Shown here piece after piece: positions 5,757-21,551 of a DNA stretch of 32,000 nucleotides (the first letter of the stretch is position 1; each line of letters starts with the position of its first letter). A program made the translations under genes and the position numbers. This DNA is from Pyrodictium occultum (GTDB lineage: Archaea; Thermoproteota; Thermoprotei_A; Sulfolobales; Pyrodictiaceae): assembly GCF_001462395.1 (NCBI RefSeq), contig NZ_LNTB01000001.1, positions 1,320,001-1,352,000 of the forward strand, given 5' to 3'. The notes under the pieces were generated by a model, which did not search any database, was not told the origin of the DNA, and saw only the letters and a program-made list of their open reading frames with translations.

Positions 5757-5870
5757 GGCTTATGCCCATCCCCGGCTTATCCTGGGCGGGGCCCTAGCTA
5801 TATCCGCCCGGGGCCGCTGCCCGGGAAGGGGCTGCGGAGAGGTAGAAGGGGGAGGGGAGGCACGGAGCTG

Positions 5871-7058
5871 TTGACGCCCAGCATTGGGGGCTGGTGCCCG
5901 GGGCGCTGCGAGGCCCAGGAGATAGACAGTGGCGTGTACATGCTCAGGATCGCCGACTATAGGGTCAAGTTCTTCGACTCTGTCTGGGAGGTCCCGGAAG
6001 GGGTAACCTACAACGCCTACCTGGTGGCCGGGCCGGAGAAGCTGGTCCTCGTTGGGCTCGCGGAGAGGAGGCATGCCGCGGCGCTGCTGGAGCTGCTCCG
6101 GAGAGCCGCCGGGCCCCGGGACCTGGATGCGGTTGTCCTCCAGCACACCTCCCACCTGGCCGCGGCCGAGCACCTGCTCCGGGAGGCTGGCGGCGTGAGG
6201 CTCTACACCCTCCCAGGGCTCGGGGAGCCGCCGGGCCTCAGGGCGGCCGTGCTGGAGCCCGGGGAGGGCATCAGCCTCGGGGGCGGCTGGAGGCTCTTCC
6301 TGCCGACGGGGCAGCCGCCCTGGCCCGGAGGCATCCTAGTGCTGGAGCCCCACGGCCTGGTGTTTACCGGCGACCTGTTCTCCGGCTACTCCACGCCCCC
6401 CATAATGGTTGACCGCGAGGACGTGGAGCTGTTCAGCTACTACACCTACTTTATGAGGAAGTACTTCGCCACTGTCATAGGGCCCTACAGGGGTAGGCTC
6501 CAGAGGCTGCTGGAGAAGCTGGCTGCCCTCGGCCCCAGGCTGCTGGCACCTCTCCACGGCCTGGCGCTGGAGGCCCGGGCCGCGGAGGCGCTGCAGCTCT
6601 ACACTGGCTGGGCCCGGGGCAGGCTGGACCCGGGCAAGGCTGTCGCGGTCTACCTCGACCTGGACTCGGGCCCGGTGGCCGAGGCGGTTGAGAGGCTCGC
6701 CGAGGCCCTGGAGGAGAAGGACGTGGATGTCGCTGTTTACGGGTTCACCGAGACCCGGCGGCCCAACATCTCGGAGATCCTGGGCGACGCTGTCGACGCC
6801 GCCTACATAGTCATGGGCTTCGGCCGGCCCTGGGACGGGGGAGCGCCGCCGCCCCTCTCATTCCTCGTCAACCTCCTCTGCAGCCACGCCGCCTCCAGGC
6901 AGAGGCTGCTCATCCTCCACGGCCCCGGCGCCACGTCGCCCGCGGCCCTTCTCGCGGCCAGGCTCCAGGCCTGCGGCATGGAGGCTCTGGGGGCTCTGGA
7001 GCCCCGGGGAGACTGGCTCCACCGGGCCCTGGGGAAGCTGCTATCCGGGCCAGGCTAG
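5871..7058 (+). CDS. Metallo-beta-lactamase-fold + flavodoxin-like two-domain protein (flavodiiron/FprA-like, ligand motifs degenerate)
   Basis: The FprA-like N-terminus is RVKFFDSVWEVPEGVTYNAYLV. Later come FTGDLFSGY and APLHGLAL, then a C-terminal alpha/beta domain (KAVAVYLDLDSGPVAEAVERLAEAL). The more likely start is ATG 5940 (MLRIADY...); the ORF track begins at TTG 5871. Confidence 0.6.
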   Translation: MTPSIGGWCPGRCEAQEIDSGVYMLRIADYRVKFFDSVWEVPEGVTYNAYLVAGPEKLVLVGLAERRHAAALLELLRRAAGPRDLDAVVLQHTSHLAAAEHLLREAGGVRLYTLPGLGEPPGLRAAVLEPGEGISLGGGWRLFLPTGQPPWPGGILVLEPHGLVFTGDLFSGYSTPPIMVDREDVELFSYYTYFMRKYFATVIGPYRGRLQRLLEKLAALGPRLLAPLHGLALEARAAEALQLYTGWARGRLDPGKAVAVYLDLDSGPVAEAVERLAEALEEKDVDVAVYGFTETRRPNISEILGDAVDAAYIVMGFGRPWDGGAPPPLSFLVNLLCSHAASRQRLLILHGPGATSPAALLAARLQACGMEALGALEPRGDWLHRALGKLLSGPG

Positions 7059-7096
7059 CCCCGGGGGCGCAGCCCGGGGGGAGGAGAAGGGAGGCG

Positions 7097-8470
7097 TTGG
7101 CGCCCGGGGAGGAGCTGCAAGAGGCGCTTGCAAGGCTCGGCTGGCTCCGCGAGCCCAGCGTCCCCGTCATCGGCTGCAGGGGCTCCGGCCGGGCCTGCTG
7201 GAGAGTCCGGGGGGACTACTGGCTGGCGGGCCGCTACGAGAAGAGGATCCTAGACTCCCTGGCCCAGCTGGCCTTCGGCGTAGACCCGGGGCTCCGGGAG
7301 AAGCTGGTGGTCCTCCACCGCGCCCCCGCGCCGGGCGGCGAGTACGCCGCCGAGGCCTTCGGGGAGGCCCTCCGCCTCGGCGTGGTGGAGTACACGAGCA
7401 GGGGCTGGAGGCTCCACCCCAGCGGCGCCCTGGCGAGCCTGGCCGCCAGCCTCGGGGCCGAGGCGGTGCAGGCCCCGGCAGGGGGGAGGCTGAAGGGCAA
7501 GCGTGTCCGGCTCCCCGCGGGGGCCTGCAGGGGCCGCCGCTGGGTCATCGTCTCCTCCCGGGGCTGGCTGGGCCCGGCGAGGGTGGACCGGGTCGAGGAC
7601 GGGGCCTGCCTGGCCAAGGTCAAGGACATGGCGCCGCGGGGTCTGGAGCCGCTCCCGCCGGCCGGGCTCGACGAGGCCGTGGAGAGGAACGCCGAGCTGG
7701 TCGGCGCCCTGGCCTCCGAAGCCAGGGAGTTCATCAGGAGGGCCTACGCGAGGGTGCAGGCGAGCAGGGGCAGGGTCTACGTAGCCTTCAGCGGCGGCGC
7801 CGACTCCACCGCAGTGCTCAGCCTCGCCAGGGAGGCGCTGGGCGCCGAGAGGGTGGTGGCGGTCTACGCCGACACGGGGATGGAGTTCCCGGAGGCGAGG
7901 AGGCACGTGGAGAGGATAGCCTCCATCCTCGGCGTCGACCTCGAGGTCGTGGAGCCAGGCGTCGACCCCCTGGAGGAGATAGAGAGGAGGGGGTTGATGA
8001 CGAGGGATAATAGGTGGTGCACCAGGGTCTTCAAGCTCGGGCCCCTCCGCCGCTTCTACCAGCGGGTCGGGGCGAGGCTCATCCTCGACGGGGCCAGGCG
8101 GTGGGAGAGCAGCAGCCGGGCCAGGACGCCGAGGCTCGGGGAGAACCCGCTCATCCCCGGCGTGGCGAGGGCGCTGCCCATCCACCACTGGCCCCGGCTA
8201 GCAGTCCAGCTCTACCTGGCCGAGAGGGGGATCCCCCTGAGCCAGCTCTACCAGGAGGGGCTGACCAGGATAGGCTGCATCGCCTGCCCCGCGATGCACC
8301 TCTACGAGATCCACCTCGCCTACCGGCTCCACCCATCCTGGTACCGCCGCCTCGCCGAGGCGGTCGCCCGGAGGGAGGGCATCGACCCCGGGGAGGCGCT
8401 GCGCCTCCTCCTCTCCGGCCGGTGGCGCCGCCAGGGGGAGCCCGGGACCTGGATCCAGGACCGGGGCTAG
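7097..8470 (+). CDS. PP-loop ATP pyrophosphatase / PAPS-reductase-family protein with a ~220-aa N-terminal extension
   Basis: PP-loop motif VAFSGGADSTAVLSLA, then DTGMEFPE, NRWCTRVFKLGP and a C-terminal RIGCIACPA cysteine motif. TTG start 38 nt after the preceding gene. Confidence 0.8.
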   Translation: MAPGEELQEALARLGWLREPSVPVIGCRGSGRACWRVRGDYWLAGRYEKRILDSLAQLAFGVDPGLREKLVVLHRAPAPGGEYAAEAFGEALRLGVVEYTSRGWRLHPSGALASLAASLGAEAVQAPAGGRLKGKRVRLPAGACRGRRWVIVSSRGWLGPARVDRVEDGACLAKVKDMAPRGLEPLPPAGLDEAVERNAELVGALASEAREFIRRAYARVQASRGRVYVAFSGGADSTAVLSLAREALGAERVVAVYADTGMEFPEARRHVERIASILGVDLEVVEPGVDPLEEIERRGLMTRDNRWCTRVFKLGPLRRFYQRVGARLILDGARRWESSSRARTPRLGENPLIPGVARALPIHHWPRLAVQLYLAERGIPLSQLYQEGLTRIGCIACPAMHLYEIHLAYRLHPSWYRRLAEAVARREGIDPGEALRLLLSGRWRRQGEPGTWIQDRG

Positions 8471-9798
8471 CCGGGGATACGGCCCTCCGCGGCCTCGGCC
8501 CTGCTCCTCCTGCTCAGCTCCTCAGCCGCCTCCGCGACCGCCTCGGCGTCCAGCGCCTCGTCCAGCCCCCGGGGCGGGGCCGTGAAGCCCTCAAGCGCCA
8601 CGGCGCCCGCCCTGGGTATGCCCAGGCCCCGTATCCAGGAGGCGTAGCCCTCCGCCTCCCCCGCGGCCATCCTCCCCATCTTCACCTCGTACCCTATGAG
8701 CGGGCGCCCCCTCCCGTCGAGGAGCACCACGTCCACGTCCCTGCCGCTGGGCTGGAGGGAGTACCCCCTCCGGGCCCCGTGAAGCCTGGCGAGAAGCTCG
8801 CCCAGGGTGAACTGCAGCTCCACCCCGTACCTTGAGCGGAGGGCCTCCACGCTGGGCGGCTGGCCCAGCTCCTCCACCACGTCGGCGACGCTGTAGAGGA
8901 GGGAGAGGAGGGGCGACCGGTGCCGGTAGTAGACGCGGGCGCCCCGGGTCCTCCAGAGGGGCACCCTCTTCACCAGCCCCATCTCCTCCAGCACCCTGAG
9001 CACTCCGGTGGCTGAGCCGGGCTGCGGGCTCGAGACGAGCCCCGCCTCGTAGAGCCTTGCCGCTATCTCGGCGGCCCTCCAGTAGCCCTCGGCGAGCAGG
9101 CGGAGCACGGCATCGTAGACCCTGGTGAGCTGCCTCTCCTCCTCCTCGAACACCTCGCCCACCAGCCCCCGGGCGGCCGGCGTGAGGCCCGCCGCGTGGG
9201 CGGCTAGAGCCCTCCAGGGGTCCCCCCGGGGCTCCACGTGGCGGAGCAGCCAGGGGTCCCGGGCCACCACAGCCCAGAGCACGGCCTCCCTGGCCCCGAG
9301 GCCCAGGCGACGCAGCGACGCGATGGCGTCGGCTACGTCGACCAGGTCCACGTGGAAGGCCTCGAAGAGGCCCAGGAGGGGGCTACGGCGGTCGAACACC
9401 CGCCGCACCACCCCCATGCTGGAGCCGCAGGCTATGAGGCCTGGCTCCGCCTCCCCCGCCACAGCGGCTAGGAGCTCCCAGTAGCGCCGGGGCAGCCTCT
9501 GGAACTCGTCGAGCACCGCCAGGCCCCGGCCCCTCCGCAGCCACCCGGCGACCAGGCTGACACAGTCGCCCAGCCCCGTTATCCTCGGGCCGCCGCCCCT
9601 CTCCTCCACGATGCACTCGCCGTCCCCCGTGGCTGTGGCGTAGAGCCCCCAGTCGACGCAGCGGCGGAGCAGCCAGGTCTTCCCCGTCTTCCTCCTCCCG
9701 TAGACCAGCAGCCAGCCCTGGCGCCGCGAGGCGAGGTAGCTGCACTCCCACCGGTCCAGCGCCGCCGGCAACCCCGAGGACCTCCAGGACACTACCAC
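8467..9798 (-). CDS. Archaeal ATPase (Arch_ATPase-like P-loop) with a C-terminal wHTH and DUF234-like domain
   Basis: Walker A LLVYGRRKTGKTWLL and Walker B LAVLDEFQRL. The C-terminal DVDVVLLDGRGRPLIGYEVKMGRM resembles the DUF234 nuclease-fold tail. GTG start at 9798. Confidence 0.75.
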   Translation of the reverse strand: MVVSWRSSGLPAALDRWECSYLASRRQGWLLVYGRRKTGKTWLLRRCVDWGLYATATGDGECIVEERGGGPRITGLGDCVSLVAGWLRRGRGLAVLDEFQRLPRRYWELLAAVAGEAEPGLIACGSSMGVVRRVFDRRSPLLGLFEAFHVDLVDVADAIASLRRLGLGAREAVLWAVVARDPWLLRHVEPRGDPWRALAAHAAGLTPAARGLVGEVFEEEERQLTRVYDAVLRLLAEGYWRAAEIAARLYEAGLVSSPQPGSATGVLRVLEEMGLVKRVPLWRTRGARVYYRHRSPLLSLLYSVADVVEELGQPPSVEALRSRYGVELQFTLGELLARLHGARRGYSLQPSGRDVDVVLLDGRGRPLIGYEVKMGRMAAGEAEGYASWIRGLGIPRAGAVALEGFTAPPRGLDEALDAEAVAEAAEELSRRSRAEAAEGRIPG

Positions 9799-9820
9799 TA
9801 TATAACAGCCACTATATAAC
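9795..9820 (+). promoter_or_regulatory. Tandem direct repeat of a TATA-containing 12-mer (CCACTATATAAC x2, 14-nt period)
   Basis: The copies are at 9795-9806 and 9809-9820, separated by AG. They lie in the divergent region between the ATPase gene (GTG 9798) and the CYTH gene (9910). Confidence 0.4.
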
Positions 9821-9909
9821 CAGAGTTACAGGGCATCGGCAGCCCCCTTGGAGGGCTACCCCTTTATCCGCCCAGCCGGGCCCTAGGGGCCAGCAGCGGG
9901 GACAGTGTA

Positions 9910-10470
9910 TTGGCTGGGGGCGGGGTTGAGGTTGAGGCCAAGCTGAGGCTCCGGGACTGCAGGGAGCTGGAGGAGGTCGAGAAGAGGCTCCAGGAGCTGG
10001 GGGCGGTCCACGAGGAGGATGTTGCAGAGGAGGACACCTACTACCAGCACCCCTGCCGCGACTTCGCAGAGACCGACGAGGCCCTCCGCGTAAGGCTCGT
10101 AGACGGCAGGGCGGAGCTGACCTACAAGGGGCCCAAGAGGATAATCGGGGGCTCCAAGGCCAGGGCAGAGTACACAATAACGCTCGAGGACCCCAGCAGC
10201 GCCAGGAGGATACTGGAGGCCCTCGGCTTCCGGCCCGCCGCAGTGGTGAGGAAGAGGAGAAGCTACTACCGGCTGGACGGCGTATCAGTCTCCCTCGACA
10301 GGGTGGAGGGGCTCGGCTGCTTCCTCGAGGCAGAGTACACGGGCGAGGGGGGCCAGGAGGCGGCGAGAGCTATAGAGGAGGCCCTAGAGAAGCTGGGCGT
10401 CGCAGAGAGGGAAAGGATCTACAAGTCCTACCTAGAGCTCCTCCTGGAGAAGAAAGCTCCGGAAGCCTAG
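9910..10470 (+). CDS. CYTH-domain protein (class IV adenylate cyclase / triphosphate tunnel metalloenzyme family)
   Basis: N-terminal ExExK signature (VEVEAKLRL), then ALRVRL...AELTYKGPK and a C-terminal DRVEGLGCFLEAEY. 186 aa is the typical CyaB/CYTH size. Confidence 0.8.
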   Translation: MAGGGVEVEAKLRLRDCRELEEVEKRLQELGAVHEEDVAEEDTYYQHPCRDFAETDEALRVRLVDGRAELTYKGPKRIIGGSKARAEYTITLEDPSSARRILEALGFRPAAVVRKRRSYYRLDGVSVSLDRVEGLGCFLEAEYTGEGGQEAARAIEEALEKLGVAERERIYKSYLELLLEKKAPEA

Positions 10471-10623: not shown

Positions 10624-11868
10624 CTATGGCCTGCAGTGTGGAGGGTCTGTGGTGTAGTCGAGCACTATGCTGATGCAGTGAAGCTTGTCGTTCCTGTCTA
10701 CTGTGGCCTCTATTCTTGCCTGGAGCACTGCCGCGGGGTAGGTTCGGTCTCCGAGTCTTAGCTCGACGCAGTTGGATTTGTCTATGGGTATGGTTGCCGC
10801 TGGTTTCTGCGGTGTTAGGGTGGCTTTGTGCTCGTGGGCTGGGCTGTAGAGGTCTATTCTCAGGCTGCGGATTAGTGAGCACGGGTGCATGGATTTGAGG
10901 GCTATTGTCAGGGCGTCTATGGGTGCGCCCCCGCTGCAGCCGCAGCTGCGGTCGAGTATGATGTAGAGCGTGTAGTTCGCTACTAGCCTGCATATCCCCT
11001 CCTCCTCGCCGTGGTCTGCGGCTTTGCAGCTGCAGTCGAGGCGGATGGGGATGCTTGTTCTCCCGTGGAGTACCCAGGCGCGGGGGCAGTGACGGCCCTC
11101 TTCCTCTTCCTCCTTGGAGGTGTTGGTGGCGCTGGTGGTGCTCGTGCCGCTCCTCGTCCCCGTAGTGCTGCTCCATGTGCTAGTTGTGGCTCTGGTTGTT
11201 GTGATGGTTGTCGTGTTGCCCTGGGGGGCTGTGGTGCCTGTGGCTGTCGGGGCGGCTGGCGCTGTGGCCTGGCCCGTGGTGGTTGGCTGGGTGGTCTGCG
11301 TTATGGTGGCTCTGGGGGTTGCTGTGGGTGTGAAGTATATTGTGCCCGTCTCCTCGTCGGATATGGAGACCAGGACTGGCAGCTGCACCGCTGCCGTGCA
11401 GTTTCTCGGCATGTAGTATATCCTTGCCCCGAGGACCGCGTAGCGGCTGTCGCCGCTGCCGGCCCAGCTATCCGCGTCGAGCACTATGGCTGCTGAGGGC
11501 TTGTCGAGGGACAGTGTTGCGAGCAGCTCGTTGTTAAGCGTGTTGTAGACCTCGATGTGGAGGTAGCTGAGCCAGGCCCTCAGCAGGCTGGCGTCCGCTA
11601 GGCTGACCACCAGCTTGGCCAGCCGCACCCCCGGGGCCGGCTCTACGCGGATCCACCTGCCGACGTCGAGGCTCTCGACGCTGCAGGCCCCTCCCGTCCT
11701 GAGCACGGGCGTCTCTATGATGGAGACCTCCACCGGCTTGTGGACGGCCCTGGCCCCGCCCACGGCGTAGAAGTCGTTCAGGGGGCTCAGCGTGGTGGCG
11801 AACACCGCCGCCAGCGCAAGGGCTAGCGCGGATAGTATCAGCGCCAGGGCGAGGCTGGCACGCCTCAT
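10624..11868 (-). CDS. Secreted/surface protein: signal or anchor + beta-rich domain + Thr-rich stalk + Cys-rich repeat of the same domain (paralog of 20283-21551)
   Basis: ATG start. The hydrophobic N-terminus is MRRASLALALILSALALALAAVFA, followed by TTLSPLNDFYAVGGA. A 70-aa Thr-rich tract and KEEEEE follow, then a C-terminal domain with 11 Cys. There are several N-x-S/T sequons. Confidence 0.7.
   Translation of the reverse strand: MRRASLALALILSALALALAAVFATTLSPLNDFYAVGGARAVHKPVEVSIIETPVLRTGGACSVESLDVGRWIRVEPAPGVRLAKLVVSLADASLLRAWLSYLHIEVYNTLNNELLATLSLDKPSAAIVLDADSWAGSGDSRYAVLGARIYYMPRNCTAAVQLPVLVSISDEETGTIYFTPTATPRATITQTTQPTTTGQATAPAAPTATGTTAPQGNTTTITTTRATTSTWSSTTGTRSGTSTTSATNTSKEEEEEGRHCPRAWVLHGRTSIPIRLDCSCKAADHGEEEGICRLVANYTLYIILDRSCGCSGGAPIDALTIALKSMHPCSLIRSLRIDLYSPAHEHKATLTPQKPAATIPIDKSNCVELRLGDRTYPAAVLQARIEATVDRNDKLHCISIVLDYTTDPPHCRP
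11116..11331 (-). repeat. Low-complexity Thr/Ala/Pro-coding tract (ACN-rich) inside the 414-aa gene
   Basis: Encodes TPTATPRATITQTTQPTTTGQATAPAAPTATGTTAPQGNTTTITTTRATTSTWSSTTGTRSGTSTTSATNTS. On the + strand it reads as GGT/GTG-rich repeats that create the shadow ORFs 11011-11496 and 11114-11416. Confidence 0.7.
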
Positions 11869-11924
11869 GCAGGACGGCCTCCCCGAGGGACAGCGTACCC
11901 CGGGGGCGGCTGGGCACTGGAGAC

Positions 11925-11937
11925 GCTTATATAGTGC
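11925..11937 (-). promoter_or_regulatory. TATA-like box GCACTATATAAGC (- strand) upstream of the 414-aa secreted-protein gene
   Basis: It shares the 10-mer CACTATATAA with the two copies at 9796-9819. It is centred about 63 nt upstream of the ATG at 11868. Confidence 0.35.
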
Positions 11938-12040
11938 AGGCCCCGTGTTTCAAGGCAGAGCCTGTAGCCAGGAGCACCACGCGCAAGGTTTTGCCGGGGT
12001 CTGAGGGCCACCCGGCTGGCATCGACGCCTCTGGGCAGAG

Positions 12041-13189
12041 GTGTACTCTATGAGGCTGAGGCTTCCCCGGCGCGCGAGGGTGAGGAGGGAGCTGAGGCTA
12101 GCGGACGTCTGGCTCATGGAGCGCTGGCCGGTGGAGACCCTCGACGCCTCCAAGATGACTGACCCACCGTTCGCCGACATAGGCGGCGCCGGCTCGGTTC
12201 TGGAGAGCCTCGTGGACCAGGCGGTGTCGGGCAGGGGCGGGATATACGTAGTAGTCGGCGGCCCCGGCTCGGGCAAGACGACGCTGCTCAAGACGCTTCA
12301 CAGCCGGCTCCGCCGGGGAGGCGTGTACTCGGTCTACGTCAACGCCTCGGGCCGCAGCCTCGACGACCTGGTGGCCGGCCTCTGCACGATACTCGGCTGC
12401 ACCGAGCCGAGCCTCGACTCGCTGAGGGAAAAGCTCCGGGAGAGGGCCGCCGAGAAGGGGGCTATGGCTCTGCTAGTAGACGATATCGACAGGATGGCGG
12501 GCGGGAACATCGACGACGTGATCAAGCTGCTCACAACCCTCACCTCGGCCCAGCGGGAGCTGGGCCGCAGCCTGCTCATAGTGTTCAGCATGGCCCGTGA
12601 CACCCTGGCGAGGCTCAGCCTCGACCCGCTCACCAGGGGGCTGATAAAATCCTACATGGAGGTTATAGACATGGACGAGCACCTGGTGAAATCCCCCAGC
12701 GACCTGGCGAGGCTTATCTACGCCCACTTCCAGCGGGTACGGCCCCGCAGCCTAAGCAAGAAGGCGGCCGCCACCCTGAGCCGCTACCCCCTCCACCCCA
12801 TCAGGGACCAGAGCGTCATAAACGTGCTCTACGACGTGATAGGCGATGACACCCCCCGCGTGTACCTAGAGAAGCTCGACGAGCTCCTAAGGATAGCGGC
12901 CAGCTCGCGCTCACGCCTGGTAAGCGTTTCACACGCGAACGTGCTCGCCAGAAGGATCCTCCAGGCCCGTCGCGGGGCGATACCCCTAACCCAGATCCGA
13001 GCCGTCATCCTACGCCGCTACGTCAACGGCCTCCTGGCCGGCGGGCTCGTAGTACTGGGCACGATGGCCGTAACACTCTCAATGATAAACCTCGTGCCAC
13101 CAGGCCTCAAGCTGCCGTACATAGTCGTGGGCCTGGTGCTGATGCTGGTAGGCGTGCTCGTGCATATGAAATCCGTATCGGCCCCCTAA
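12041..13189 (+). CDS. Membrane-tethered P-loop NTPase (AAA_22/ORC-like ATPase core with two C-terminal transmembrane helices)
   Basis: Walker A YVVVGGPGSGKTTLLKTL and Walker B ALLVDDIDRM. The C-terminal hydrophobic helices are LLAGGLVVLGTMAVTLSMINLV and YIVVGLVLMLVGVLVHM. There is a GTG at 12041 and an ATG at 12050. Confidence 0.75.
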   Translation: MYSMRLRLPRRARVRRELRLADVWLMERWPVETLDASKMTDPPFADIGGAGSVLESLVDQAVSGRGGIYVVVGGPGSGKTTLLKTLHSRLRRGGVYSVYVNASGRSLDDLVAGLCTILGCTEPSLDSLREKLRERAAEKGAMALLVDDIDRMAGGNIDDVIKLLTTLTSAQRELGRSLLIVFSMARDTLARLSLDPLTRGLIKSYMEVIDMDEHLVKSPSDLARLIYAHFQRVRPRSLSKKAAATLSRYPLHPIRDQSVINVLYDVIGDDTPRVYLEKLDELLRIAASSRSRLVSVSHANVLARRILQARRGAIPLTQIRAVILRRYVNGLLAGGLVVLGTMAVTLSMINLVPPGLKLPYIVVGLVLMLVGVLVHMKSVSAP

Positions 13190-13216
13190 AGAGGGGCCGC
13201 GCCCCCCAGGCTGCAG

Positions 13217-13810
13217 GTGGGGGATGGTATGAGCAACGACTACCTAGACCTCACTGTGCCGGAGGAGGGCTCACTGACTGGAGCCCTACTAGCCCTGGCC
13301 GTGCTCGGCGTCATTGTAGCGGTTGGGCTAAGCCTGCGGGGCACTCTGCCGCGCTTCGCGGTGATCCAGACGACGAGCATGGTTCCAACCCTCGTGCCCG
13401 GCGACGTTGTTATGATAACCCATGTAAACCCTAATGACATACACATAGGTGACATAATAGCCTTCAACCTGGTGGCATATGATATCGATAGCCAGGGGAG
13501 GCCCGTAGACGTAAGACGCACGGTAATAGTGGTCCACCGCGTGATAGGCAAGAAGGTTATCAACGGGCACCTCTACTTCCGCACCAAAGGCGACAACAAC
13601 CCCACGCCAGACCCCTGGTATGTGCTCCCTCAGGGCGTGCTGGGCAAGGCCGAGAAGGTGGCCAGCCTGGGCAGCTTCGGCCTGGTGCTAACCAACCCGG
13701 TAGGGAGGATATTCGTGATAGTCATGATGCTCTCGTCCCTGGTGCTCCTGCTAAGCACTGTGAGGAGCTATAGTAAAGGTATACGTGAGGACCTCGAGAG
13801 CTACATGTAG
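13217..13810 (+). CDS. Type I signal peptidase, Sec11/SipW (Ser-His) type
   Basis: S26 boxes: TTSMVPTLVPGD (catalytic Ser), VVHRVIG (His), TKGDNNPTPD. It has N-terminal and C-terminal TM segments. It lies 27 nt downstream of the ATPase on the same strand. Confidence 0.85.
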   Translation: MGDGMSNDYLDLTVPEEGSLTGALLALAVLGVIVAVGLSLRGTLPRFAVIQTTSMVPTLVPGDVVMITHVNPNDIHIGDIIAFNLVAYDIDSQGRPVDVRRTVIVVHRVIGKKVINGHLYFRTKGDNNPTPDPWYVLPQGVLGKAEKVASLGSFGLVLTNPVGRIFVIVMMLSSLVLLLSTVRSYSKGIREDLESYM

Positions 13811-13860
13811 ATGTCTCGGCAAACGCTAGAAACACTAATGCGGTAGGCTGGCGGGTAGGA

Positions 13861-14268
13861 CTACCGGGAGGCACTGGTGTTGCTGCCGGCGTGCAGGAAG
13901 GGCCTGCATATGGCTAGCTTCTCTGCCAGCGTCTGGTTGAGGCTGTAGATCTGCCTGCACACCTCCCCAAGCTCCTCGCTGTTAACCAGCGTCTTGAAGC
14001 CGTTAACATCAAGTATGAAACTGCTATTACCGAGAGGGTGGAGGCTTATCATCAACGTGTTAGACTTGTTTACAATACTTATAAAGTCGCTGCTAACCTT
14101 GTCAACTATTGTCCTATTCAGCTTGTTCTGTGCAATCGCGTTAGCCACCTCCACGAGATCCATACCGGCCTGGTTTACGACCGTCTTAACGTACTGGGCT
14201 ATGACGCCTATTATGAGTGATGACGCGATGAGCGCTATGAGGCCCGGTACAATGAACTCTTTTAGCAT
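13861..14268 (-). CDS. Small N-terminally anchored extracytoplasmic protein, unknown function
   Basis: 135-aa ORF with ATG start. The N-terminal TM is FIVPGLIALIASSLIIGVIAQYV. It has four N-x-S/T sequons (NRT, NKS, NSS, NQT, plus NTS near the end). It sits in the most AT-rich stretch of the window, and no family was recognised. Confidence 0.55.
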   Translation of the reverse strand: MLKEFIVPGLIALIASSLIIGVIAQYVKTVVNQAGMDLVEVANAIAQNKLNRTIVDKVSSDFISIVNKSNTLMISLHPLGNSSFILDVNGFKTLVNSEELGEVCRQIYSLNQTLAEKLAICRPFLHAGSNTSASR

Positions 14269-14347
14269 GCAGAACCACCACTAATGCCGAGGATTATCAA
14301 CTATAATGCCTAATATAACGGTAACGTGGCTGGGCCACGAAAAGCGT

Positions 14348-14417
14348 AGAGCAAACCCAGGGTTTATCCCCCGAGGATTCTGCGGGGAGAAGGGCTACCT
14401 AAACCCTGGATGGCTCT
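14348..14417. other. Nested inverted repeat / candidate structured RNA or operator in a 217-nt intergenic region
   Basis: A perfect 10-bp stem pairs CCAGGGTTTA (14357-14366) with TAAACCCTGG (14400-14409). It encloses an inner CCCCG (14369-14373)/CGGGG (14383-14387) hairpin and is flanked by AGAGC (14348-14352)/GCTCT (14413-14417). Confidence 0.35.
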
Positions 14418-14447
14418 GCTCCTCCAGGCCCCCGGGTATCAACGATG

Positions 14448-14455
14448 ATTTTTAG
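14448..14455 (+). promoter_or_regulatory. TATA-like box (ATTTTTAG) upstream of the 54-aa ORF
   Basis: An AT patch centred about 35 nt upstream of the ATG at 14486, consistent with archaeal TATA spacing for a short-leader transcript. Confidence 0.3.
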
Positions 14456-14485
14456 CGGGCTGACGCCCATAATTCTCTAGCGGAG

Positions 14486-14650
14486 ATGAGGGGCGTGCCC
14501 GACCAGCCCGGCTACAGGGATGAGGAAGACGAGACAAGGTACTGGATTGGTATTGCGCTCATAGTCATCGGCGCGCTGCTCATACCCTTCTCGCTGGTGA
14601 TTGGCGCCATCCTCGTAGCCGTGGGCGCTGTCCTCCTGGCGTCCCGGTGA
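14486..14650 (+). CDS. 54-aa small membrane protein (below the ORF-track cut-off)
   Basis: ATG 14486 to TGA 14648-14650. Translates as MRGVPDQPGYRDEEDETRYWIGIALIVIGALLIPFSLVIGAILVAVGAVLLASR: an acidic head plus about 34 hydrophobic residues. GC3-rich codons match the host usage, and a TATA-like box lies upstream. Confidence 0.4.
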   Translation: MRGVPDQPGYRDEEDETRYWIGIALIVIGALLIPFSLVIGAILVAVGAVLLASR

Positions 14651-14698
14651 GGAAGCCCCTGGGCTTCCCTCTTTTCCGGCCGGCAGCGCCGGAGGGCT

Positions 14699-15268
14699 CT
14701 ATATGTTGAAGCCTATCTCCCGTAGCTTGTTGGCCACAAACCGCTTGTCCTCTTCGGGCAGCAGCTCTATGCCCTGCCTGATCAGCCTCTCGTCCACCTT
14801 GAGCCTGCCCTCGTCTATGTACTCGCGTATTATCTTCAGGTCCTCTATGTCGGTCTCCCGCGCCGCCTTCGCCTTGAGCACTATGTAGTCTTCGAGCCTT
14901 AGCAGCCTGGCCTCGATGTTCCCTAGCCTCCTCTTGCCCGCCCTCTCGAGCATCTCGGGCGGTATGTAGTAGTCGTGGATATTCTCGTAGAACTCCACTA
15001 TAACCTCCTCGCCGCTGGGGAGCCTCGCCACGAACTTCGGCGTGCCCAGCGCCGTGTAGGCTACCTGCCAGCCCTCCTCCTCCGCTATGGCGTGGTACCT
15101 TTCCTCCTCTATCAGCGGGCTGGGCTCCAGGGCGAAGATGTCTACGTCGTCCTCGAACCGTCTACGCCGCAGCTCTAGCTCTACGACCGTGCTCCCCACT
15201 ATGACCCCTTTCACCCCGTGCCGCTGCAGCCTCGAAAGCAGCCACGCCAGGTCCTGAATGCTGTACAC
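14699..15268 (-). CDS. Nucleotidyltransferase-fold protein (DUF2204/minimal NTase-like), function unknown
   Basis: 189-aa ORF. GVIVGSTVVELELRRRRFEDDVDIF fits the G-[SG]...D-x-D pattern of pol-beta-fold nucleotidyltransferases. The family assignment is tentative. Confidence 0.5.
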   Translation of the reverse strand: MYSIQDLAWLLSRLQRHGVKGVIVGSTVVELELRRRRFEDDVDIFALEPSPLIEEERYHAIAEEEGWQVAYTALGTPKFVARLPSGEEVIVEFYENIHDYYIPPEMLERAGKRRLGNIEARLLRLEDYIVLKAKAARETDIEDLKIIREYIDEGRLKVDERLIRQGIELLPEEDKRFVANKLREIGFNI

Positions 15269-15358
15269 GGGCTATGCACCCTCCAAGGGAGCGGTGGGCC
15301 TCCCCCATGTGGCCCGCTAGTGGCGGCCCCTGGGTTTAGGGTTTAGATGGCTACCGCC

Positions 15359-18300
15359 TCATGGCCCCCGGCTGGCCCTCCTGGCCCCGCGGCTGCGCCT
15401 GAGCCTCAGCTTGCCCATGGCGGCGAGCAGCGAGACCACCGCCACGATGCTGACCGCAAGCACTATGAGGGCCCGCTGGCGGCGGGTCAGCGTCACCCCT
15501 CCCGCGGCGGGTGCGGGCGTGGCGTGGGCGGCCGTGGTGGGTGTCGCGGCGCCTCCCGCCGGCGTTGCTGTGGTGGGTGTCGTAGGCCTCTGGGACGCCG
15601 TGGTGGGACCGGCGCGGCTCGGGCCGAGGGGTATCTGCCCGCTTGTGCTTGCCAGTGTGAATGACTCGCTCGCCCCATCCGGCACCGCTCTAAGCACGAC
15701 GCTGTATGGTATGCTGCTGCCGCTCCTCAACGCCACCTTCACCCTCATGGACAGGGTCTCGCCTGGGCGCAGCAGGCCGCTCCGCAGGGAGGCGGTCCCC
15801 GCCGTGTGGTTGCCCGGCTCGGCTTCGAGCACTGTCACACTATCTGGGAACGATATGCTGAGTATGGCGTTCTTGAAGTCTATGGAGTCTAGGTTGGCCA
15901 CGCTGACCTCCAGCACTGCGAGGTTCCTATAGCTCTCCAGCTTCTTCACCTCAAGCTTCACGTAGGGCACCTTGACCCTGATGGGCACTGTTGCCAGCGC
16001 CTGGCCGCCCAGCCGGAGCACGAGGTACAGCGTGTCCTCGCTCCCCGGCGCGGCCACCGGGGACACCTGGACCCCGGCCCACAGGGTGGTGAACTCCCCA
16101 GGCTCTATATCCACGCGGGTTGCCGGGAGGAAGAGCCTGGCTATGGAGCTCTCGTTAACCGGCTCCAGCGCCGCGCCCGCTATCCTGACGCCCGAGGAAA
16201 CCACTATCTTGACGTCAACCTTGCCGCCGGGCGGGGCGGCGATGTAGCTGGGCGTCACGTCGACCCCCACGCTGCGGCGCAGGAGCTCTATCACCGGCAC
16301 CCTGGCAATCTGGTACCTCTTGAGCAGGTAGCTGCCCGTGTCATCGTAGATCTCCAGGACCACGCTCAGAACGTCCAGGGGCTTGAGGCTCACCGTTCCC
16401 AGGCTCATGCTCACGTCCAGCGTGCGGTGGCTCCTAGCGGGCACCGTGACTACCTGGGCGTAGTCGTAGATGGCGCAGGCGCTGACGTTCACACAGTTCC
16501 CCTGGCCCCTGACCACCAGGAACCTGGCCAGGAACACAGAGTCGCGCTCGCTGGGGTTGTAGAAGGATACGTGGGCCACCAGCCCCCTCCTAGCTATGTC
16601 GACGCTCGCGCTCTCGAGCTGCGGCTCCACAACCACCGACCGTATCCTTATGCTCGTAGTGGCCGTGGCTACAGCCCTGCCGCTCGAGTCCAGCACCTCT
16701 ATGCTGGCCGTGTAGGTGCCCGGGTAGGCTGTAGGGGGGACTGGGATGCTCACTATGAAGCTCGTGTCGCCGCCCAGGGGGACCAGCTCCTCCGCCGAGT
16801 CGGCCTCCCCAAGGCCCTCTATGGATATGTGGACCCTCAGCTTGGCCGCCGTGTTCCCCTCGTTGGCCACCTTCACCTCTACCCGGAAGCTCTTACCCAC
16901 AACGGGCAGGTCTAGGACACGCACCTCCTCCACGCTCGCGGAGACCACGGGCTTGACCTGGAGCAGGTTGTGGAGCCTCCAGGAGGCGTAGGGCTTGCCC
17001 GCTATGTAGAGCGTCGCGCTGGCGTCGTAGCTGCCGGCGGCCGCGTCCCTGGGGACCTGGATGGGGACCTCCACTACGTTCGCGCCGGGGAAGAGGGGGG
17101 CCTTGGCGCTGTAGCTCTTCCCGAACATGTTTATGACGAGCGTCGCGTCGACCGAGCCCTCGCCCTCCAGCCGCAGCCGGAGGGTGGCTATCGCCTGGCC
17201 GCCTGGGTCCACGCTCCCGGGGGACGCCGTGTAGCCCGTGAGGGATACCCGGTAGGACACCACCTCTACCGCCGCGCCGGCCTTCGCGGGGGCGTAGAGG
17301 CTGTCCCCCTCGAACCTGGCCACTACATCGTGCCTGCCCAGCCCGAGCCATGAGGTGTCAAACTCCACCACCGCCACGCCGCTGCGGTCGGTGCGGCCCG
17401 TGCCGACGAGCCTCCCATCCACGTAGAAGCTGACAGAGCGCCCCACGATGGGCCTGCCCGAGAGCCCGTCGAGGAGCCGAGCCTCTAGGCGGGCCAGGCT
17501 GCCGCGGGTGACGATTATGCTCTGGGCCTCTACCCTGGCGGGCCTCCTGAGCACCTCTATAGCCGCCGTCTTCGAGCCCCTCAGCCCCGTGTTGTCGACT
17601 ACGGTGAGCGTGACGTTGTAGACGCCGGGCTTCTCGAAGACGTGCGTGACTATCGCGCCGCTCGCCACCGTGCCGTCGCCGAAGTCCCAGTGGTACTCCG
17701 TGATGTTGCCGTCGGGGTCGTAGGAGAGGAGCCCGTAGAAGGTGACGTTGGAGCCCCAGTAGACGCGTCTAGGCGTGAACCAGAAGCCCGCCACGGGGGG
17801 CCTGCCCTTCACGCACCAGGTGGGCCGGGTGGTGAGCCAGGGCCGGTAGTCGACCGTCGCCTTCTCGCCGAGCATTATCCTGCTCCCCTTGCCGCCCGTG
17901 TTCCCGGGGGCTGCGGGGCCGGAGGGGTCGCCCCACCAGTTGTGCCCCGCGTAGACGTAGCCGCTGTCCACCCGGAGCCCGTAGAGCCCCTGGCCCAGGG
18001 GGCAGCTGTAGCTCACCACCGCCGTGGCGTCTTCAACGCTCTTGATGTATATGCCGCCGTTGATCCTGGAGTATAGGACAAGCAGCCTCGCCTTATTGCC
18101 CACGCCGCCCTTCTCGCCGTCCACGGTCAGGCTGTCGAGCTGGCACCTCTCAAGCCTCATAACCGTCGACTTCCCGTAGAGGCCCCAGTCCTCGCGTATC
18201 CAGTTGTCCGCTATGCTCTCCCCCCTCACAGCCACGGAGCCTAGGACGGAGTTCACCGCCGTGAAGCTCGAGTAGTCAAGCGCCCGGCCGGAGGAGGTCC

Positions 18301-20282: not shown

Positions 20283-21551
20283 CTAGCCCGTCTCAACCAC
20301 CCTGGCGTTGATCACCAGGGGCACGCTGTCGAAGAGCACGCCCTCCCTAGCCTCGTAGTACACCCGGGCGCCCAGGACCGCCGCCCGGCCTCCATCGTAG
20401 AGCCAGGAGGAGTTGTCCAGCACGAGCACAGCCTCCGGCACGGACCAGCCGCTGGAGGAGTCAAAGCCGAGCACAACCCTGGCGCCGGCATGCCCGCCCT
20501 GGCCGGCCCGAGCAGCCTGGACGGGCACCGCCTGGGCGGAGACTGTGGCGCCCTCTTTAACGTCTATCCAGTTGTACCTGCCCCGCTGTGGTACAGTAAT
20601 ATTGGCGTTGCCGATAGTGACGCTGCTCTTATTGACATAGGTGTAGTAGCCGCGCCACCATATGCTGAAGAGCCACCGGCCGCTGGCGTCGTAGAAGTCT
20701 AGGGAGAGGGTCCAGTTCAATGCAGAGTAGACGATGTCAAACCCTCCCTCGACGCTGCCATTGAGCAGCCAGACCCCGTAGTCCCTAGAGTCGAGTACAA
20801 CCCTCTCAAACCGCCATGGGCCAAGTACGCCGGCCTGCATGTACACCGACAACCTAGCCCCCTGCGGCGGCTCGCGGTCAAGCACGTACGCGAAGAGCTT
20901 ACCCCTCTTCAGCGAGTCCACAATAATGCCTGGAGCGGTGCTGTTCTCCGGCGCCAGGCTTACCTCCCCGCCGGCAGTGGAGTTGCCGTACGAGAACCTC
21001 ACTACAGCGTAGGAGGCATTGCGCCAGAGCCTGTTTGCGGCAGCGTTTGCATTCTTCACGCCCGCCTTGGCCAGCGCGTTGCTCAGCAGCCATAGGGCTT
21101 CAGTCCTGTCCACCAGCGCCCCCCACCAGCAGTCGAACATGTAGAGGGGGGCGTCCACCAGCGTAACGTTGTAGCTCATAGCGGGGGGCGGGGCGGCGCT
21201 CCCGGCGGCGGGCTCCCCCACCTCTACGACCACGGCCAGGTACCTGAAGAGCCTCTCCAGGTACTCTATGTTCTCCAGGCTCAGCTCCAGCTTCACATAG
21301 TCGACATCACTGTGCCTTGTTATTTTGAGCCAGGTGGTCACCTCCACTACTCCCTGGGAGCCCGCTGCGGGGCTTATGGTTATGCTGCCGAGCTGCTGGA
21401 GGCTTATGGGCTCGTTGGGCGCCTGCGCGCCGCCCACCGCGTGGAAGCTGCTCAGCGGGCTCTGGGTGGTGGCGAAGCCTGCTAGCAGGGCGAGGGCGGC
21501 AGCCGAGGCGGCGAGGGCGGCCAGGGCGAGGGCTGCTGAGCGGTGGTTCAA
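20283..21551 (-). CDS. Secreted protein, paralog of 10624-11868 with a large central insertion
   Basis: The hydrophobic N-terminus AALALAALAASAAALALLAGFA is followed by TTQSPLSSFHAVGGAQA. The C-terminus is LVLDNSSWLYDGGRAAVLGARVYYEA. Both segments align with the 414-aa protein. There are several N-x-S/T sequons and a TTG start. Confidence 0.75.
   Translation of the reverse strand: MNHRSAALALAALAASAAALALLAGFATTQSPLSSFHAVGGAQAPNEPISLQQLGSITISPAAGSQGVVEVTTWLKITRHSDVDYVKLELSLENIEYLERLFRYLAVVVEVGEPAAGSAAPPPAMSYNVTLVDAPLYMFDCWWGALVDRTEALWLLSNALAKAGVKNANAAANRLWRNASYAVVRFSYGNSTAGGEVSLAPENSTAPGIIVDSLKRGKLFAYVLDREPPQGARLSVYMQAGVLGPWRFERVVLDSRDYGVWLLNGSVEGGFDIVYSALNWTLSLDFYDASGRWLFSIWWRGYYTYVNKSSVTIGNANITVPQRGRYNWIDVKEGATVSAQAVPVQAARAGQGGHAGARVVLGFDSSSGWSVPEAVLVLDNSSWLYDGGRAAVLGARVYYEAREGVLFDSVPLVINARVVETG

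Follow-up and report, generated by a model that had tools for sequence, protein, structure and literature searches.

A signal peptidase I and a membrane-tethered AAA+ ATPase encoded beside cannula-type genes in Pyrodictium occultum

We analyzed a 32,000-nucleotide stretch of DNA (the window) whose source is Pyrodictium occultum and in which every listed open reading frame is present at its given coordinates. A gene for a secreted homolog of cannula subunits, the building blocks of this archaeon's extracellular tubes, stands there beside genes for a membrane-tethered AAA+ ATPase and a type I signal peptidase. It seems reasonably likely to us that these genes represent a conserved three-part module, composed of one or more Can-like subunits, a signal peptidase I of a narrow clade and a hairpin-tethered AAA+ ATPase that acts in subunit release. 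In the initial annotation, the genes had been proposed to encode a filament system whose subunits are exported by Sec and joined by donor strands; a SipW-like peptidase would serve it, and the tethered ATPase would be a new component. This proposal is supported by homology to CanX and CanA and by a conserved gene neighborhood. The same annotation called the system undescribed, which does not hold for the filament: it belongs to the known Pyrodictium cannula family, and the novel part is the linkage of ATPase and peptidase only. The region is best explained as part of the P. occultum cannula gene cluster.

Genes and proteins of the locus

The 414-aa protein encoded at 10624..11868 on the minus strand begins with a hydrophobic signal peptide, in agreement with its earlier description as secreted, followed by a CanX-type jelly-roll domain with a donor strand; its mature N-terminus is approximately TTLSPLNDFYAVGGA. 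The protein also has a Thr-rich linker (approximately residues 176-260) and a Cys-rich C-terminal domain, with 12 Cys residues and 4 sequons in all. A phmmer search of the PDB matched it to CanX (9h8b, E 4e-21) and CanA (7uii, E 5e-10). When the C-terminal domain was aligned with the Can domain using hhalign, a probability of 88.6% was obtained (E 2.6e-6), and this domain is probably a second, degenerate Can-like domain. Orthologs of 398 aa (E 5e-106) and 399 aa are found in Pyrodictium abyssi and in locus L001, respectively. A second Can-like secreted protein, of 422 aa, is encoded at 20283..21551 on the minus strand, and the end of locus L002 carries its P. abyssi counterpart. An insertion of approximately 260 aa (residues ~110-371) interrupts its CanX-type jelly roll, and its phmmer match to CanX falls in two stretches (residues 5-110 and 371-419; E 1e-32), with CanA matched at E 1e-18. 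Its donor strand (TTQSPLSSFHAVGGA) is intact. As had been suggested, it is a true paralog of the 414-aa protein (BLASTP 1e-8; phmmer 4e-18).

The N-terminal donor-strand sequence is kept between these two proteins and the solved Can subunits, and judged by their sequences both proteins are homologs of the cannula subunits CanX and CanA. CanX and CanA belong to the TasA superfamily and polymerize by donor-strand complementation (PMC12518558). The P. occultum proteins share the signal peptide and the donor-strand N-terminus with the P. abyssi subunits (PDB 9h8b, 7uii, 9dlo and 9hdi; PMC12518558), the P. abyssi region orthologous to the window includes canX itself, and the cannula paper (PMC12518558) mentions large domain insertions of the kind present in the 422-aa protein. 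Unlike P. abyssi, P. occultum lacks a short CanX-type gene at this position in the window, and the 414-aa class differs from CanX and CanA in having a KPV-x-V / YY-x-P-x-x-C signature and the additional Cys-rich C-terminal domain.

The gene at 12041..13189 on the forward strand had been read as encoding a P-loop NTPase tethered to the membrane by its C-terminus, a reading confirmed by an AAA_22 match (Pfam PF13401; 53.6 bits, cut-off 27), by Walker motifs and by two C-terminal hydrophobic helices. The protein is 382 aa long, or 379 aa from the RefSeq start at 12050. Its Walker A motif is GGPGSGKTT (residues 73-81) and its Walker B motif is LLVDDID, with D147 in the LLVDD portion. Across the family, Walker B has the form D-[D/N] and lacks the catalytic Glu, and in L001 the Walker A Lys is changed to Arg. 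Alignment of the family reveals an invariant PPFAD-x-x-G motif at the N-terminus (PPFADI in most members) and invariant glycines (G330, G334 and G340) in the C-terminal transmembrane hairpin, which is formed by the two hydrophobic helices (approximately residues 328-380). The predicted extracellular part is only a loop of 5-10 residues. An AF2 model of moderate confidence (pLDDT 80-90 in the core and 65 for the model) gave Foldseek matches to ORC/Cdc6, TRIP13, p97, TnsC and FtsH. Searching 1.84e9 representative proteins with an ATPase profile returned five full-length clusters and one fragment, the rest being generic AAA_22 proteins. The earlier statement that type IV pilus hallmarks are absent stands for the ATPase, with T2SSE scoring 15.6 bits against a cut-off of 24.9.

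On the same strand, 27 nt past the ATPase stop codon, lies a gene at 13217..13810 for an archaeal/ER-type signal peptidase I of 197 aa (193 aa from the RefSeq start at 13229), an assignment confirmed by its match to TIGR02228 (83.6 bits, cut-off 51.85). It is predicted to have one N-terminal and one C-terminal transmembrane helix. The alignment shows no variation at the catalytic residues Ser54, His107 and Asp126, and with these retained the enzyme looks active. The clade to which it belongs is marked by a specific insertion, and the megabase-size contigs with matches to this clade are those of P. occultum and P. abyssi only. The initial annotation had raised the possibility that this is the only signal peptidase I gene in the genome. 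The point was checked in P. abyssi, which has at least one other, the AbpX-linked WP_338249487.1; thus, the locus peptidase is not the sole signal peptidase I of P. abyssi. Since this other known enzyme is of an atypical 10-transmembrane type, the two-helix locus enzyme could nevertheless be the general peptidase.

Two small proteins are encoded beyond the peptidase gene. The first, of 135 aa (13861..14268, minus strand), has the N-terminal anchor and N-glycosylation sequons (five NxS/T) ascribed to it, gave no Pfam or NCBIfam match, and has a 137-aa ortholog (E 1e-36) and a 123-aa paralog in P. abyssi. The second, an unlisted membrane peptide of 54 aa (14486..14650, forward strand), does exist and has one transmembrane stretch (residues 17-54); tblastn aligned it with positions 11288-11440 of L002 at 45% identity (E 1.6e-8), and the syntenic P. 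abyssi site keeps the open reading frame although it is uncalled as a gene. The earlier inclusion of both proteins in the module is not borne out: outside P. occultum they occur only in P. abyssi, the locus comparison found no homolog of the 135-aa protein in other lineages, and both fall outside the cross-lineage core. Their membership is uncertain. The description of the region as an AT-rich patch is correct insofar as GC falls below that of the surroundings (57% in the peptidase gene and 51% in the 135-aa gene, compared with 68% for the whole window), but this is a relative dip. The 414-aa and ATPase genes diverge from a 172-bp intergenic region that contains TTATATA (11927..11933), a TATA-box-like sequence that may be a promoter element.

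Conservation of the gene neighborhood

In P. abyssi, canX (encoding 174 aa with the very sequence of 9h8b) is followed by the genes for the 398-aa ortholog, the ATPase (WP_338251952.1) and the peptidase (WP_338251954.1), in agreement with the accession order in PMC12518558. The ATPase and peptidase genes are thus 1-2 genes from that of the major native cannula subunit. As the initial annotation had anticipated, the neighborhood is kept in relatives: the ATPase gene adjoins a Can-like gene in all eight readable lineages, and it adjoins the gene for a narrow-clade signal peptidase in six of seven readable cases. There are four different gene orders. Both Pyrodictium species have Can-like <-> ATPase -> peptidase. 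L001 and L007 show Can-like genes <-> ATPase, whereas L004/5 and L006 show Can-like -> peptidase <- ATPase; L008/9 has peptidase -> ATPase -> Can-like genes, and L010/11 has Can-like -> ATPase <- peptidase. Peptidase-clade members adjoin the ATPase in P. abyssi, L004/5, L006, L008/9 and L010/11. With a Can-like gene beside the ATPase gene in eight of eight lineages and in four gene orders, the arrangement is beyond chance.

An all-against-all comparison of the loci found that the Can-like, ATPase and peptidase families are the only ones common across lineages, with no fourth gene family. Identities across lineages are 40-57% for the peptidase and 27-38% for the ATPase, and the same two lineage groups emerge from both proteins, indicating co-divergence. 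Two loci depart from this pattern and count against the module reading. In L001, a multiheme-cytochrome-like gene, and no peptidase gene, follows the ATPase gene. No ATPase occurs within 10 kb of the orthologous peptidase (55% identity) of L003, which lies beside a large PKD surface protein.

A possible role in subunit release

It is from gene neighborhoods that we infer how the module functions, including the role of the ATPase, any physical interactions and the dedication of the peptidase to Can proteins. Can-like preproteins would be exported by Sec and would remain anchored in the membrane through their signal peptides. The adjacent peptidase would then cut between VFA and TTLSPLN...; since the donor strand immediately follows the cleavage site, this cut would free the strand and license calcium-driven donor-strand polymerization outside the cell. 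The ATPase, with its whole nucleotide-binding body predicted to be cytoplasmic and almost nothing outside, probably uses its glycine-rich transmembrane hairpin to associate with the peptidase or the Sec site, and probably serves as a nucleotide-dependent gate or organizer that concentrates subunit release and times it. An unfolding motor is a less likely role, given the D-[D/N] Walker B motif without a catalytic Glu and the Lys-to-Arg change in one member. Peptidases and accessory proteins are common at TasA-superfamily loci (SipW/TapA; DUF5305) (PMC9245690; bioRxiv 10.64898/2026.01.04.697558). As a counterpoint, recombinant CanA and Hyper2 polymerize in vitro with calcium alone (PMC12518558), so a helper for polymerization is not strictly needed, and many Can-like genes of each genome stand in other clusters, where the ATPase-peptidase pair is missing (PMC12518558).

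Other explanations of the locus can be weighed against this one. The peptidase might do the housekeeping work of the cell's signal peptidase I, with the ATPase as its general accessory and with Can-like genes nearby only as the most abundant Sec substrates, so that the unit would serve secretion and processing rather than cannulae specifically. We regard this as unlikely, although the ordinary two-helix architecture, the score as the archaeal equivalog TIGR02228, the atypical nature of the sole other reported P. abyssi peptidase, the retention of the peptidase without the ATPase in L003 and the far better conservation of the peptidase all fit it. However, the peptidase clade and the ATPase family are equally narrow, and a general enzyme would be expected at >50% identity in P. 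delaneyi, Hyperthermus and Pyrolobus, whereas no close ortholog appears on megabase-size contigs beyond the two Pyrodictium species, assuming that the database holds those genomes. Moreover, the ATPase adjoins a Can-like gene in L001 although the peptidase does not, and Can-like -> peptidase is operon-like in L004 and L006.

Somewhat less probable again, in our estimation, is that the ATPase works independently of the peptidase, as a switch or scaffold at the membrane, perhaps marking where or when cannulae emerge at cell division or sensing the state of the envelope, the peptidase adjacency being secondary. The ATPase-Can link is indeed the tightest of the associations, the Walker substitutions suggest slow, switch-like hydrolysis, profile matches to STAND, NACHT and AAA_16 were observed (albeit weak), and cannulae arise during division (PMC12518558). 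Yet the protein lacks a sensor, DNA-binding or effector domain, it exposes just its short loop outside the cell, and peptidase adjacency in four gene orders would be difficult to account for if the two proteins were not functionally linked. That the neighborhood is a coincidence, with an ATPase from a mobile element or defense system, or an unrelated archaeal ATPase, beside unrelated small membrane proteins, strikes us as very improbable. The lower GC of the region could be read this way, as could the occurrence of AAA_22 domains in transposition proteins (TniB/TnsC), with TnsC among the Foldseek matches, and a weak PADLOC match to mad8 (27.9 bits). These PADLOC and TniB-type matches are generic to P-loop proteins, however; no transposase, integrase or repeats accompany the locus, which sits among the core genes for IleRS and reverse gyrase, and the ATPase-Can pairing recurs in eight lineages ranging from 38% to 68% GC and in four gene orders.

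Relation to other secretion and fiber systems

GspA/ExeA has a role in an envelope secretion system. Like it and the PEP-CTERM/exosortase-associated ATPase (TIGR03015), the Pyrodictium ATPase has a cytoplasmic AAA_22-type P-loop domain that is tethered to the membrane and encoded with envelope secretion or sorting-protease systems. The match to TIGR03015 is weak (E 1.4e-5; 24.7 bits against a cut-off of 324.5). Those proteins have a single transmembrane helix and a periplasmic peptidoglycan-binding domain, whereas the Pyrodictium ATPase has a C-terminal hairpin, is archaeal and has different partners.

The Bacillus subtilis tapA-sipW-tasA operon likewise combines a TasA-superfamily donor-strand subunit, a co-encoded signal peptidase I and a larger secreted accessory or minor protein (PMC9245690; bioRxiv 10.64898/2026.01.04.697558), and L004 and L006 show the same succession of subunit and peptidase on one strand. 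However, no ATPase is encoded in the Bacillus operon, the beta-sandwich fold of TapA is a different one while the 414-aa protein is itself Can-like, the Bacillus product is a thin fiber rather than a calcium-stabilized 26-nm tube, and the locus peptidase scores only 36 bits against the SipW NCBIfam model (cut-off 190). Archaeal AbpX/Tafi loci encode a signal peptidase I and a DUF5305 "SPase I accessory" protein (bioRxiv 10.64898/2026.01.04.697558). The Pyrodictium accessory is instead an AAA+ P-loop ATPase that has no extracellular beta-sandwich and gave no DUF5305 match in a Pfam search, and the AbpX-linked peptidase has 10 transmembrane helices, compared with two in the locus enzyme.

According to Sleutel et al. 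(Nat Commun 2025, PMC12518558), Can loci contain no dedicated peptidase or chaperone genes. In contrast to this published statement, a peptidase and an ATPase accompany cannula-type genes in P. occultum and most of the readable relatives.

Cannula-type proteins encoded in the window

All open reading frames listed in the initial annotation were found at their positions, and the two large secreted proteins, of 414 residues (10624-11868, minus strand) and 422 residues (20283-21551, minus strand), were confirmed to be related to each other and to carry signal-like segments at their N-termini (hydrophobic, residues 1-30). When the 414-residue protein was compared by sequence search with the proteins of the PDB, it matched the cannula subunits CanX (9h8b, E 4e-21) and CanA (7uii/9dlo/9hdi, E 5e-10). 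Likewise, the 422-residue protein matched CanX (E 1e-32) and CanA (E 1e-18). A hidden Markov model of the Can domain scored 232 bits for the 414-residue protein and 137 bits for the 422-residue protein. By these sequence comparisons, both proteins are members of the CanA/CanX family, homologous to its jelly-roll domain. PMC12518558 presents CanA and CanX as subunits of Pyrodictium cannulae, which are 26-nm extracellular tubes that polymerize via N-terminal donor-strand complementation and calcium coordination, and assigns them to a divergent branch of the TasA superfamily. An undescribed filament system had been proposed for this locus; the homology to CanX and CanA supports a donor-strand filament family, but the filament is the already known cannula and its subunits are already known as the CanA/CanX family.

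After the signal peptide, the two proteins keep a donor-strand sequence (FATTLSPLNDFYAVGG and FATTQSPLSSFHAVGG) that can be aligned with CanX and with the start of mature CanA, the family pattern being TTxSPLNxFYAxG, and from this alignment we infer the signal-peptide cleavage site of each. As possible counterparts of the acidic residues that bind calcium between subunits, the 422-residue protein keeps, as judged by eye in alignment A5, acidic positions of the EP-I and YYEAREG type; the class of the 414-residue protein has KPVEV and YYMPRN in their place. The jelly roll of the 422-residue protein is interrupted by an insertion of approximately 260 residues, an insertion-split variant such as PMC12518558 mentions for P. 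abyssi. In the 414-residue protein, the Can domain is complete, and a Thr-rich linker connects it to a Cys-rich C-terminal domain, for which conserved counterparts exist in P. abyssi and on one metagenome contig. Profile-profile comparison of this C-terminal domain with the second half of the Can domain using hhalign gave a probability of 88.6% and an E value of 2.6e-6, which was the only signal obtained; a profile search of the PDB with the domain returned no match. Judged by this profile similarity, the domain probably represents a second Can-like domain in degenerate form. For the 414-residue protein, AF2 without an alignment gave a model too poor for use (pLDDT 42).

The ATPase and the signal peptidase

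The gene at 12041-13189 (plus strand) encodes a 382-residue product that is 100% identical to P. occultum WP_058371153.1 and that had been described as a membrane-tethered P-loop ATPase. Our searches agree with that description. The protein matches AAA_22 (PF13401) with 53.6 bits against a cut-off of 27, as well as other P-loop families, it contains Walker A (GGPGSGKTT) and Walker B (LLVDDID) motifs, which across the family take the forms GxPGSGKT and hhhhD[DN], and its C-terminus carries two hydrophobic helices (approximately residues 328-380). AF2 also predicts a helical hairpin, which is confident in the model, as is the AAA+ core (residues ~50-210, pLDDT 80-90); the lid is less so. The inter-helix loop of the hairpin is only 5-10 residues long, suggesting that essentially nothing would be exposed outside the cell. 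With its Walker A and Walker B motifs and a modeled alpha/beta core with a helical lid, the protein is, as judged from the model, a member of the AAA+ class. A Foldseek search of the PDB with this model returned ORC/Cdc6, TRIP13, p97, TnsC, FtsH and Apaf-1 with E values of 4e-5 to 1e-3. The TM-scores of these matches are only 0.3-0.4, which indicates a generic AAA+/STAND-like fold and no specific family.

Three short motifs are invariant across the ATPase family: PPFAD-x-x-G at the N-terminus (mostly PPFADI), P-x-HP (mostly PLHP) and PR-x-Y (with R273). Also invariant are Walker A, the Walker B residue D147, which is followed by D or N in place of a catalytic Glu, and G330, G334 and G340 in the first membrane helix. 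In the ATPase homologue of the metagenomic locus L001 (2745-3914, plus strand, 48% identity), the Walker A Lys is replaced by Arg (GSHGSGRST). Searching an ATPase profile against 1.84 billion representative proteins recovered five full-length clusters and one fragment (P0035), the latter on a 534-bp contig that is too short for gene context; the remaining matches in this set were generic AAA_22 proteins with E > 6e-8.

Other identities for the ATPase were tried and rejected. A PilB/ArlI-type ATPase of a type IV pilus or archaellum was dismissed on a T2SSE score of 15.6 bits against a cut-off of 24.9, and the secreted proteins have class I-type signal peptides, in line with the earlier remark that no type IV pilus hallmarks were seen. 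The ExeA (GspA/ExeA)/PEP-CTERM-associated equivalog TIGR03015 reached 24.7 bits against a cut-off of 324.5. PADLOC produced only generic P-loop matches to the ATPase (mad8, 27.9 bits) and no defense-model match to the other genes of the locus. Readings of the locus as a defense system, mobile element or type IV pilus were dropped on these Pfam and PADLOC results.

The signal peptidase I gene reported in the initial annotation indeed starts 27 nt downstream of the ATPase gene (13217-13810, plus strand), and its 197-residue product is 100% identical to P. occultum WP_058371154.1. It scores 83.6 bits against a cut-off of 51.85 for TIGR02228 (archaeal signal peptidase I) and 27.6 bits against 22.9 for PF10502, is predicted to have one N-terminal and one C-terminal transmembrane helix, and contains the catalytic residues Ser54, His107 and Asp126, which are invariant across the 13 sequences of our alignment. 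By sequence, this protein is an archaeal/ER-type signal peptidase I (TIGR02228, Peptidase_S26). A search with the peptidase profile gave 6,971 matches, dominated by bacterial SipW-like sequences, and no new Pyrodictium protein was present among the best 120. If the window's enzyme were a dedicated, SipW-like filament peptidase, a separate housekeeping copy would be expected in the genome; the second P. abyssi peptidase, WP_338249487.1, is of the 10-TM, AbpX-linked type.

In alignment A3, an insertion that separates the Ser box from the His box (LVAYDIDSQGRPVDVRRTVIV) is common to the ATPase-linked clade of peptidases. A cytoplasmic tail with the sequence KGIREDLE-x-YM is also shared by the Pyrodictium peptidases and the orthologue encoded at the locus L003, and in the N-terminal tail the similarity is loose (LD/LN-x-x-P). 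Both tails are candidate docking sites for the ATPase.

Gene neighborhoods in P. occultum and its relatives

We read the gene context of every ATPase cluster and of three further relatives. The locus of P. abyssi AV2 (L002) opens with a gene for a 174-residue protein that has exactly the sequence of CanX in 9h8b, followed by the 398-residue orthologue of the 414-residue protein and, divergent to it, the gene for the ATPase (WP_338251952.1). Next are the peptidase (WP_338251954.1), a 137-residue orthologue of the 135-residue protein encoded at 13861-14268 (minus strand) in the window, an uncalled homologue of the window's 54-residue open reading frame (14486-14650, plus strand), a DUF2204 gene (11482-12051), a gene for a 1260-residue PKD protein (12680-16462) and further Can-like genes. 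This order agrees with the accessions given in PMC12518558, WP_338251948.1 for CanX and ...946 and ...950 for its two neighbors. Thus, the ATPase-peptidase pair lies one gene from that of the major native cannula subunit. By canX, where WP_338251946.1 is expected, L002 has a 115-residue open reading frame in which the Can domain is represented by its N-terminal half only, together with one of 91 residues (5928-6525, minus strand), and a 355-residue 'PaREP1' gene at 4687-5754 (minus strand) weakly matches the Can C-terminus; together these may be an insertion-bearing or disrupted Can-like gene.

In the other relatives, L004/L005 and L006 have a Can-like gene followed by the peptidase, with the ATPase gene convergent to it, and L008/L009 have peptidase, ATPase and a Can-like gene with an insertion in one direction, followed by two more Can-like genes. 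In L010/L011, a Can-like gene precedes the ATPase, with a convergent peptidase gene cut by the contig end. Can-like genes are divergent to the ATPase in L007, where the contig ends, and in L001, which has two of them and a multihaem-cytochrome-like gene after the ATPase. The product of that last gene (4180-5271, plus strand) has several CxxCH haem-binding motifs and is not a signal peptidase. These loci range in GC content from 38% to 68% (L004 is crenarchaeal by PCNA comparison), and their ATPases are 27-48% identical to that of the window. When the loci were compared all against all, no more than three families proved common across lineages, namely the Can-like proteins, the ATPase and the peptidase, which is co-inherited with the other two. 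The adjacency of ATPase, peptidase and secreted paralogue noted at the outset is conserved, in four gene orders.

One exception is L003, in which a peptidase orthologue (55% identity) follows a PKD protein gene and no ATPase is present within 10 kb. At the edge of the stretch fetched from this 52-kb contig, approximately 10 kb from the peptidase, is the C-terminal end of a Can-like gene (20428-20594, minus strand; 310 residues as called).

The 135- and 54-residue proteins, both predicted membrane proteins, had been counted as part of the same system. Homologues of them were found only in P. abyssi, and they do not belong to the core common to the lineages. The 135-residue protein has no match in Pfam, NCBIfam or PADLOC and no homologue beyond Pyrodictium. 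GC content across the peptidase and 135-residue protein genes is 51-57%, against 68% window-wide, and Rfam and tRNA scans of the window found nothing. A DUF2204 nucleotidyltransferase (14699-15268, minus strand, 225.8 bits) holds the same position in P. abyssi and was not found in the other lineages. Beyond it, 15359-19249 (minus strand) encodes a secreted protein of 1296 residues, in which PKD and Big_3_5 domains are combined with a stalk rich in Thr and Pro and with a transmembrane anchor at the C-terminus. Synteny of its gene with that of the peptidase extends to P. abyssi, and in L003 the PKD protein gene (5863-9858) immediately precedes the peptidase gene. The protein may belong to the S-layer or be anchored at the surface, and it may be a further client of the peptidase. 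Flanking the 414-residue protein gene are a 443-residue archaeal ATPase_2/AAA_22-like protein (8467-9798, minus strand) and a CYTH-domain protein (9910-10470, plus strand), which are not syntenic in P. abyssi and so are probably unrelated to the module. Genes for isoleucyl-tRNA synthetase (21713-24583, minus strand) and reverse gyrase (25392-29696, minus strand) are nearby, indicating that the locus belongs to the chromosomal core of a hyperthermophile and not to a mobile element.

A possible role in cannula biogenesis

How cannulae are built in vivo has been called a mystery (PMC4187195). A 2025 structural paper concludes that no dedicated machinery is required for their assembly, in part on the ground that Can loci showed neither peptidase nor chaperone genes, and the absence of dedicated signal peptidases and chaperones from these loci is stated at two places in its text (PMC12518558). 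Our results do not contradict the in vitro self-assembly reported there; what they call into question is the conclusion drawn from genomic context about assembly in vivo. That subunits of the TasA superfamily are encoded next to a peptidase is well known, as in tapA-sipW-tasA and in AbpX loci with a peptidase and DUF5305 (PMC9245690; bioRxiv 10.64898/2026.01.04.697558). We found no description of any ATPase as a conserved partner of TasA-superfamily loci, and a full-text literature search found no paper in which cannulae are connected in such a way to both an ATPase and a signal peptidase. What appears to be new, from sequence comparison, is the coupling of signal peptidase I and Can-like genes to a conserved AAA+ ATPase that has a membrane hairpin and a very narrow distribution.

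We tentatively propose, as a possibility that we rate as less likely than not, that cannula biogenesis in vivo is not helper-free and that the hairpin-tethered AAA+ ATPase, paired with its own signal peptidase I, is an obligatory cytoplasm-side gate or organizer of Can export and donor-strand release. A more general mechanism, which we consider the most likely one, starts from the homologies, catalytic residues, predicted topology and conserved three-gene neighborhood described here. Can-like preproteins would cross the membrane via Sec and stay held by their signal peptide. Since the donor strand begins at the predicted cleavage site, cleavage by the neighboring peptidase would free the strand and thereby permit calcium-driven polymerization. 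The ATPase would be cytoplasmic, anchored beside the peptidase or the translocon, and its nucleotide state would gate, cluster or time the release step; judging by its Walker B chemistry, it is more likely to be a switch or scaffold than a motor. The tandem 414-residue protein would be a candidate minor subunit (initiator, adaptor or anchor), a role in which TapA and AbpB may be comparable (PMC9245690).

With two strands and a rise of 3.18 Å, a cannula contains ~6,300 subunits per µm. Elongation reportedly proceeds at ~1 µm/min, a figure attributed to Horn et al. 1999, and thus each growing tube would take up roughly 100 subunits per second. A flux of this size, which is a rough estimate, would favor an organized site of export and processing.

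It is also possible, though less likely, that the peptidase is a general enzyme and the ATPase its general accessory. Apart from it, P. abyssi is reported to have just the atypical peptidase tied to AbpX, and L003 has a peptidase with no ATPase near it, both of which are consistent with a general function; however, the peptidase clade matches the ATPase family in narrowness, and close orthologues were not found on any other megabase-size contig. Alternatively, and again less likely, the ATPase could be a stand-alone switch or scaffold that makes no contact with the peptidase. That the neighborhood reflects coincidence, a mobile element or a defense system is effectively excluded by the pattern of conservation across lineages.

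The gene neighborhoods provide two candidate components, an ATPase and a peptidase, whose genes adjoin canX and accompany Can-like genes in lineages that have diverged widely: WP_058371153.1 and WP_058371154.1 in P. occultum and WP_338251952.1 and WP_338251954.1 in P. abyssi. In vivo cannula assembly thereby becomes testable without Pyrodictium genetics, which is also relevant to the engineering of cannula-based materials. Archaea are not known to have SecA, and the ATPase, if the proposal is true, may also reveal the means by which they power or regulate high-flux assembly after Sec. A filament class thought to be self-assembling would then gain a component that depends on ATP, and no other nucleotide-dependent assembly factor would precede it among filaments that belong to the TasA superfamily or form by Sec-dependent donor-strand exchange.
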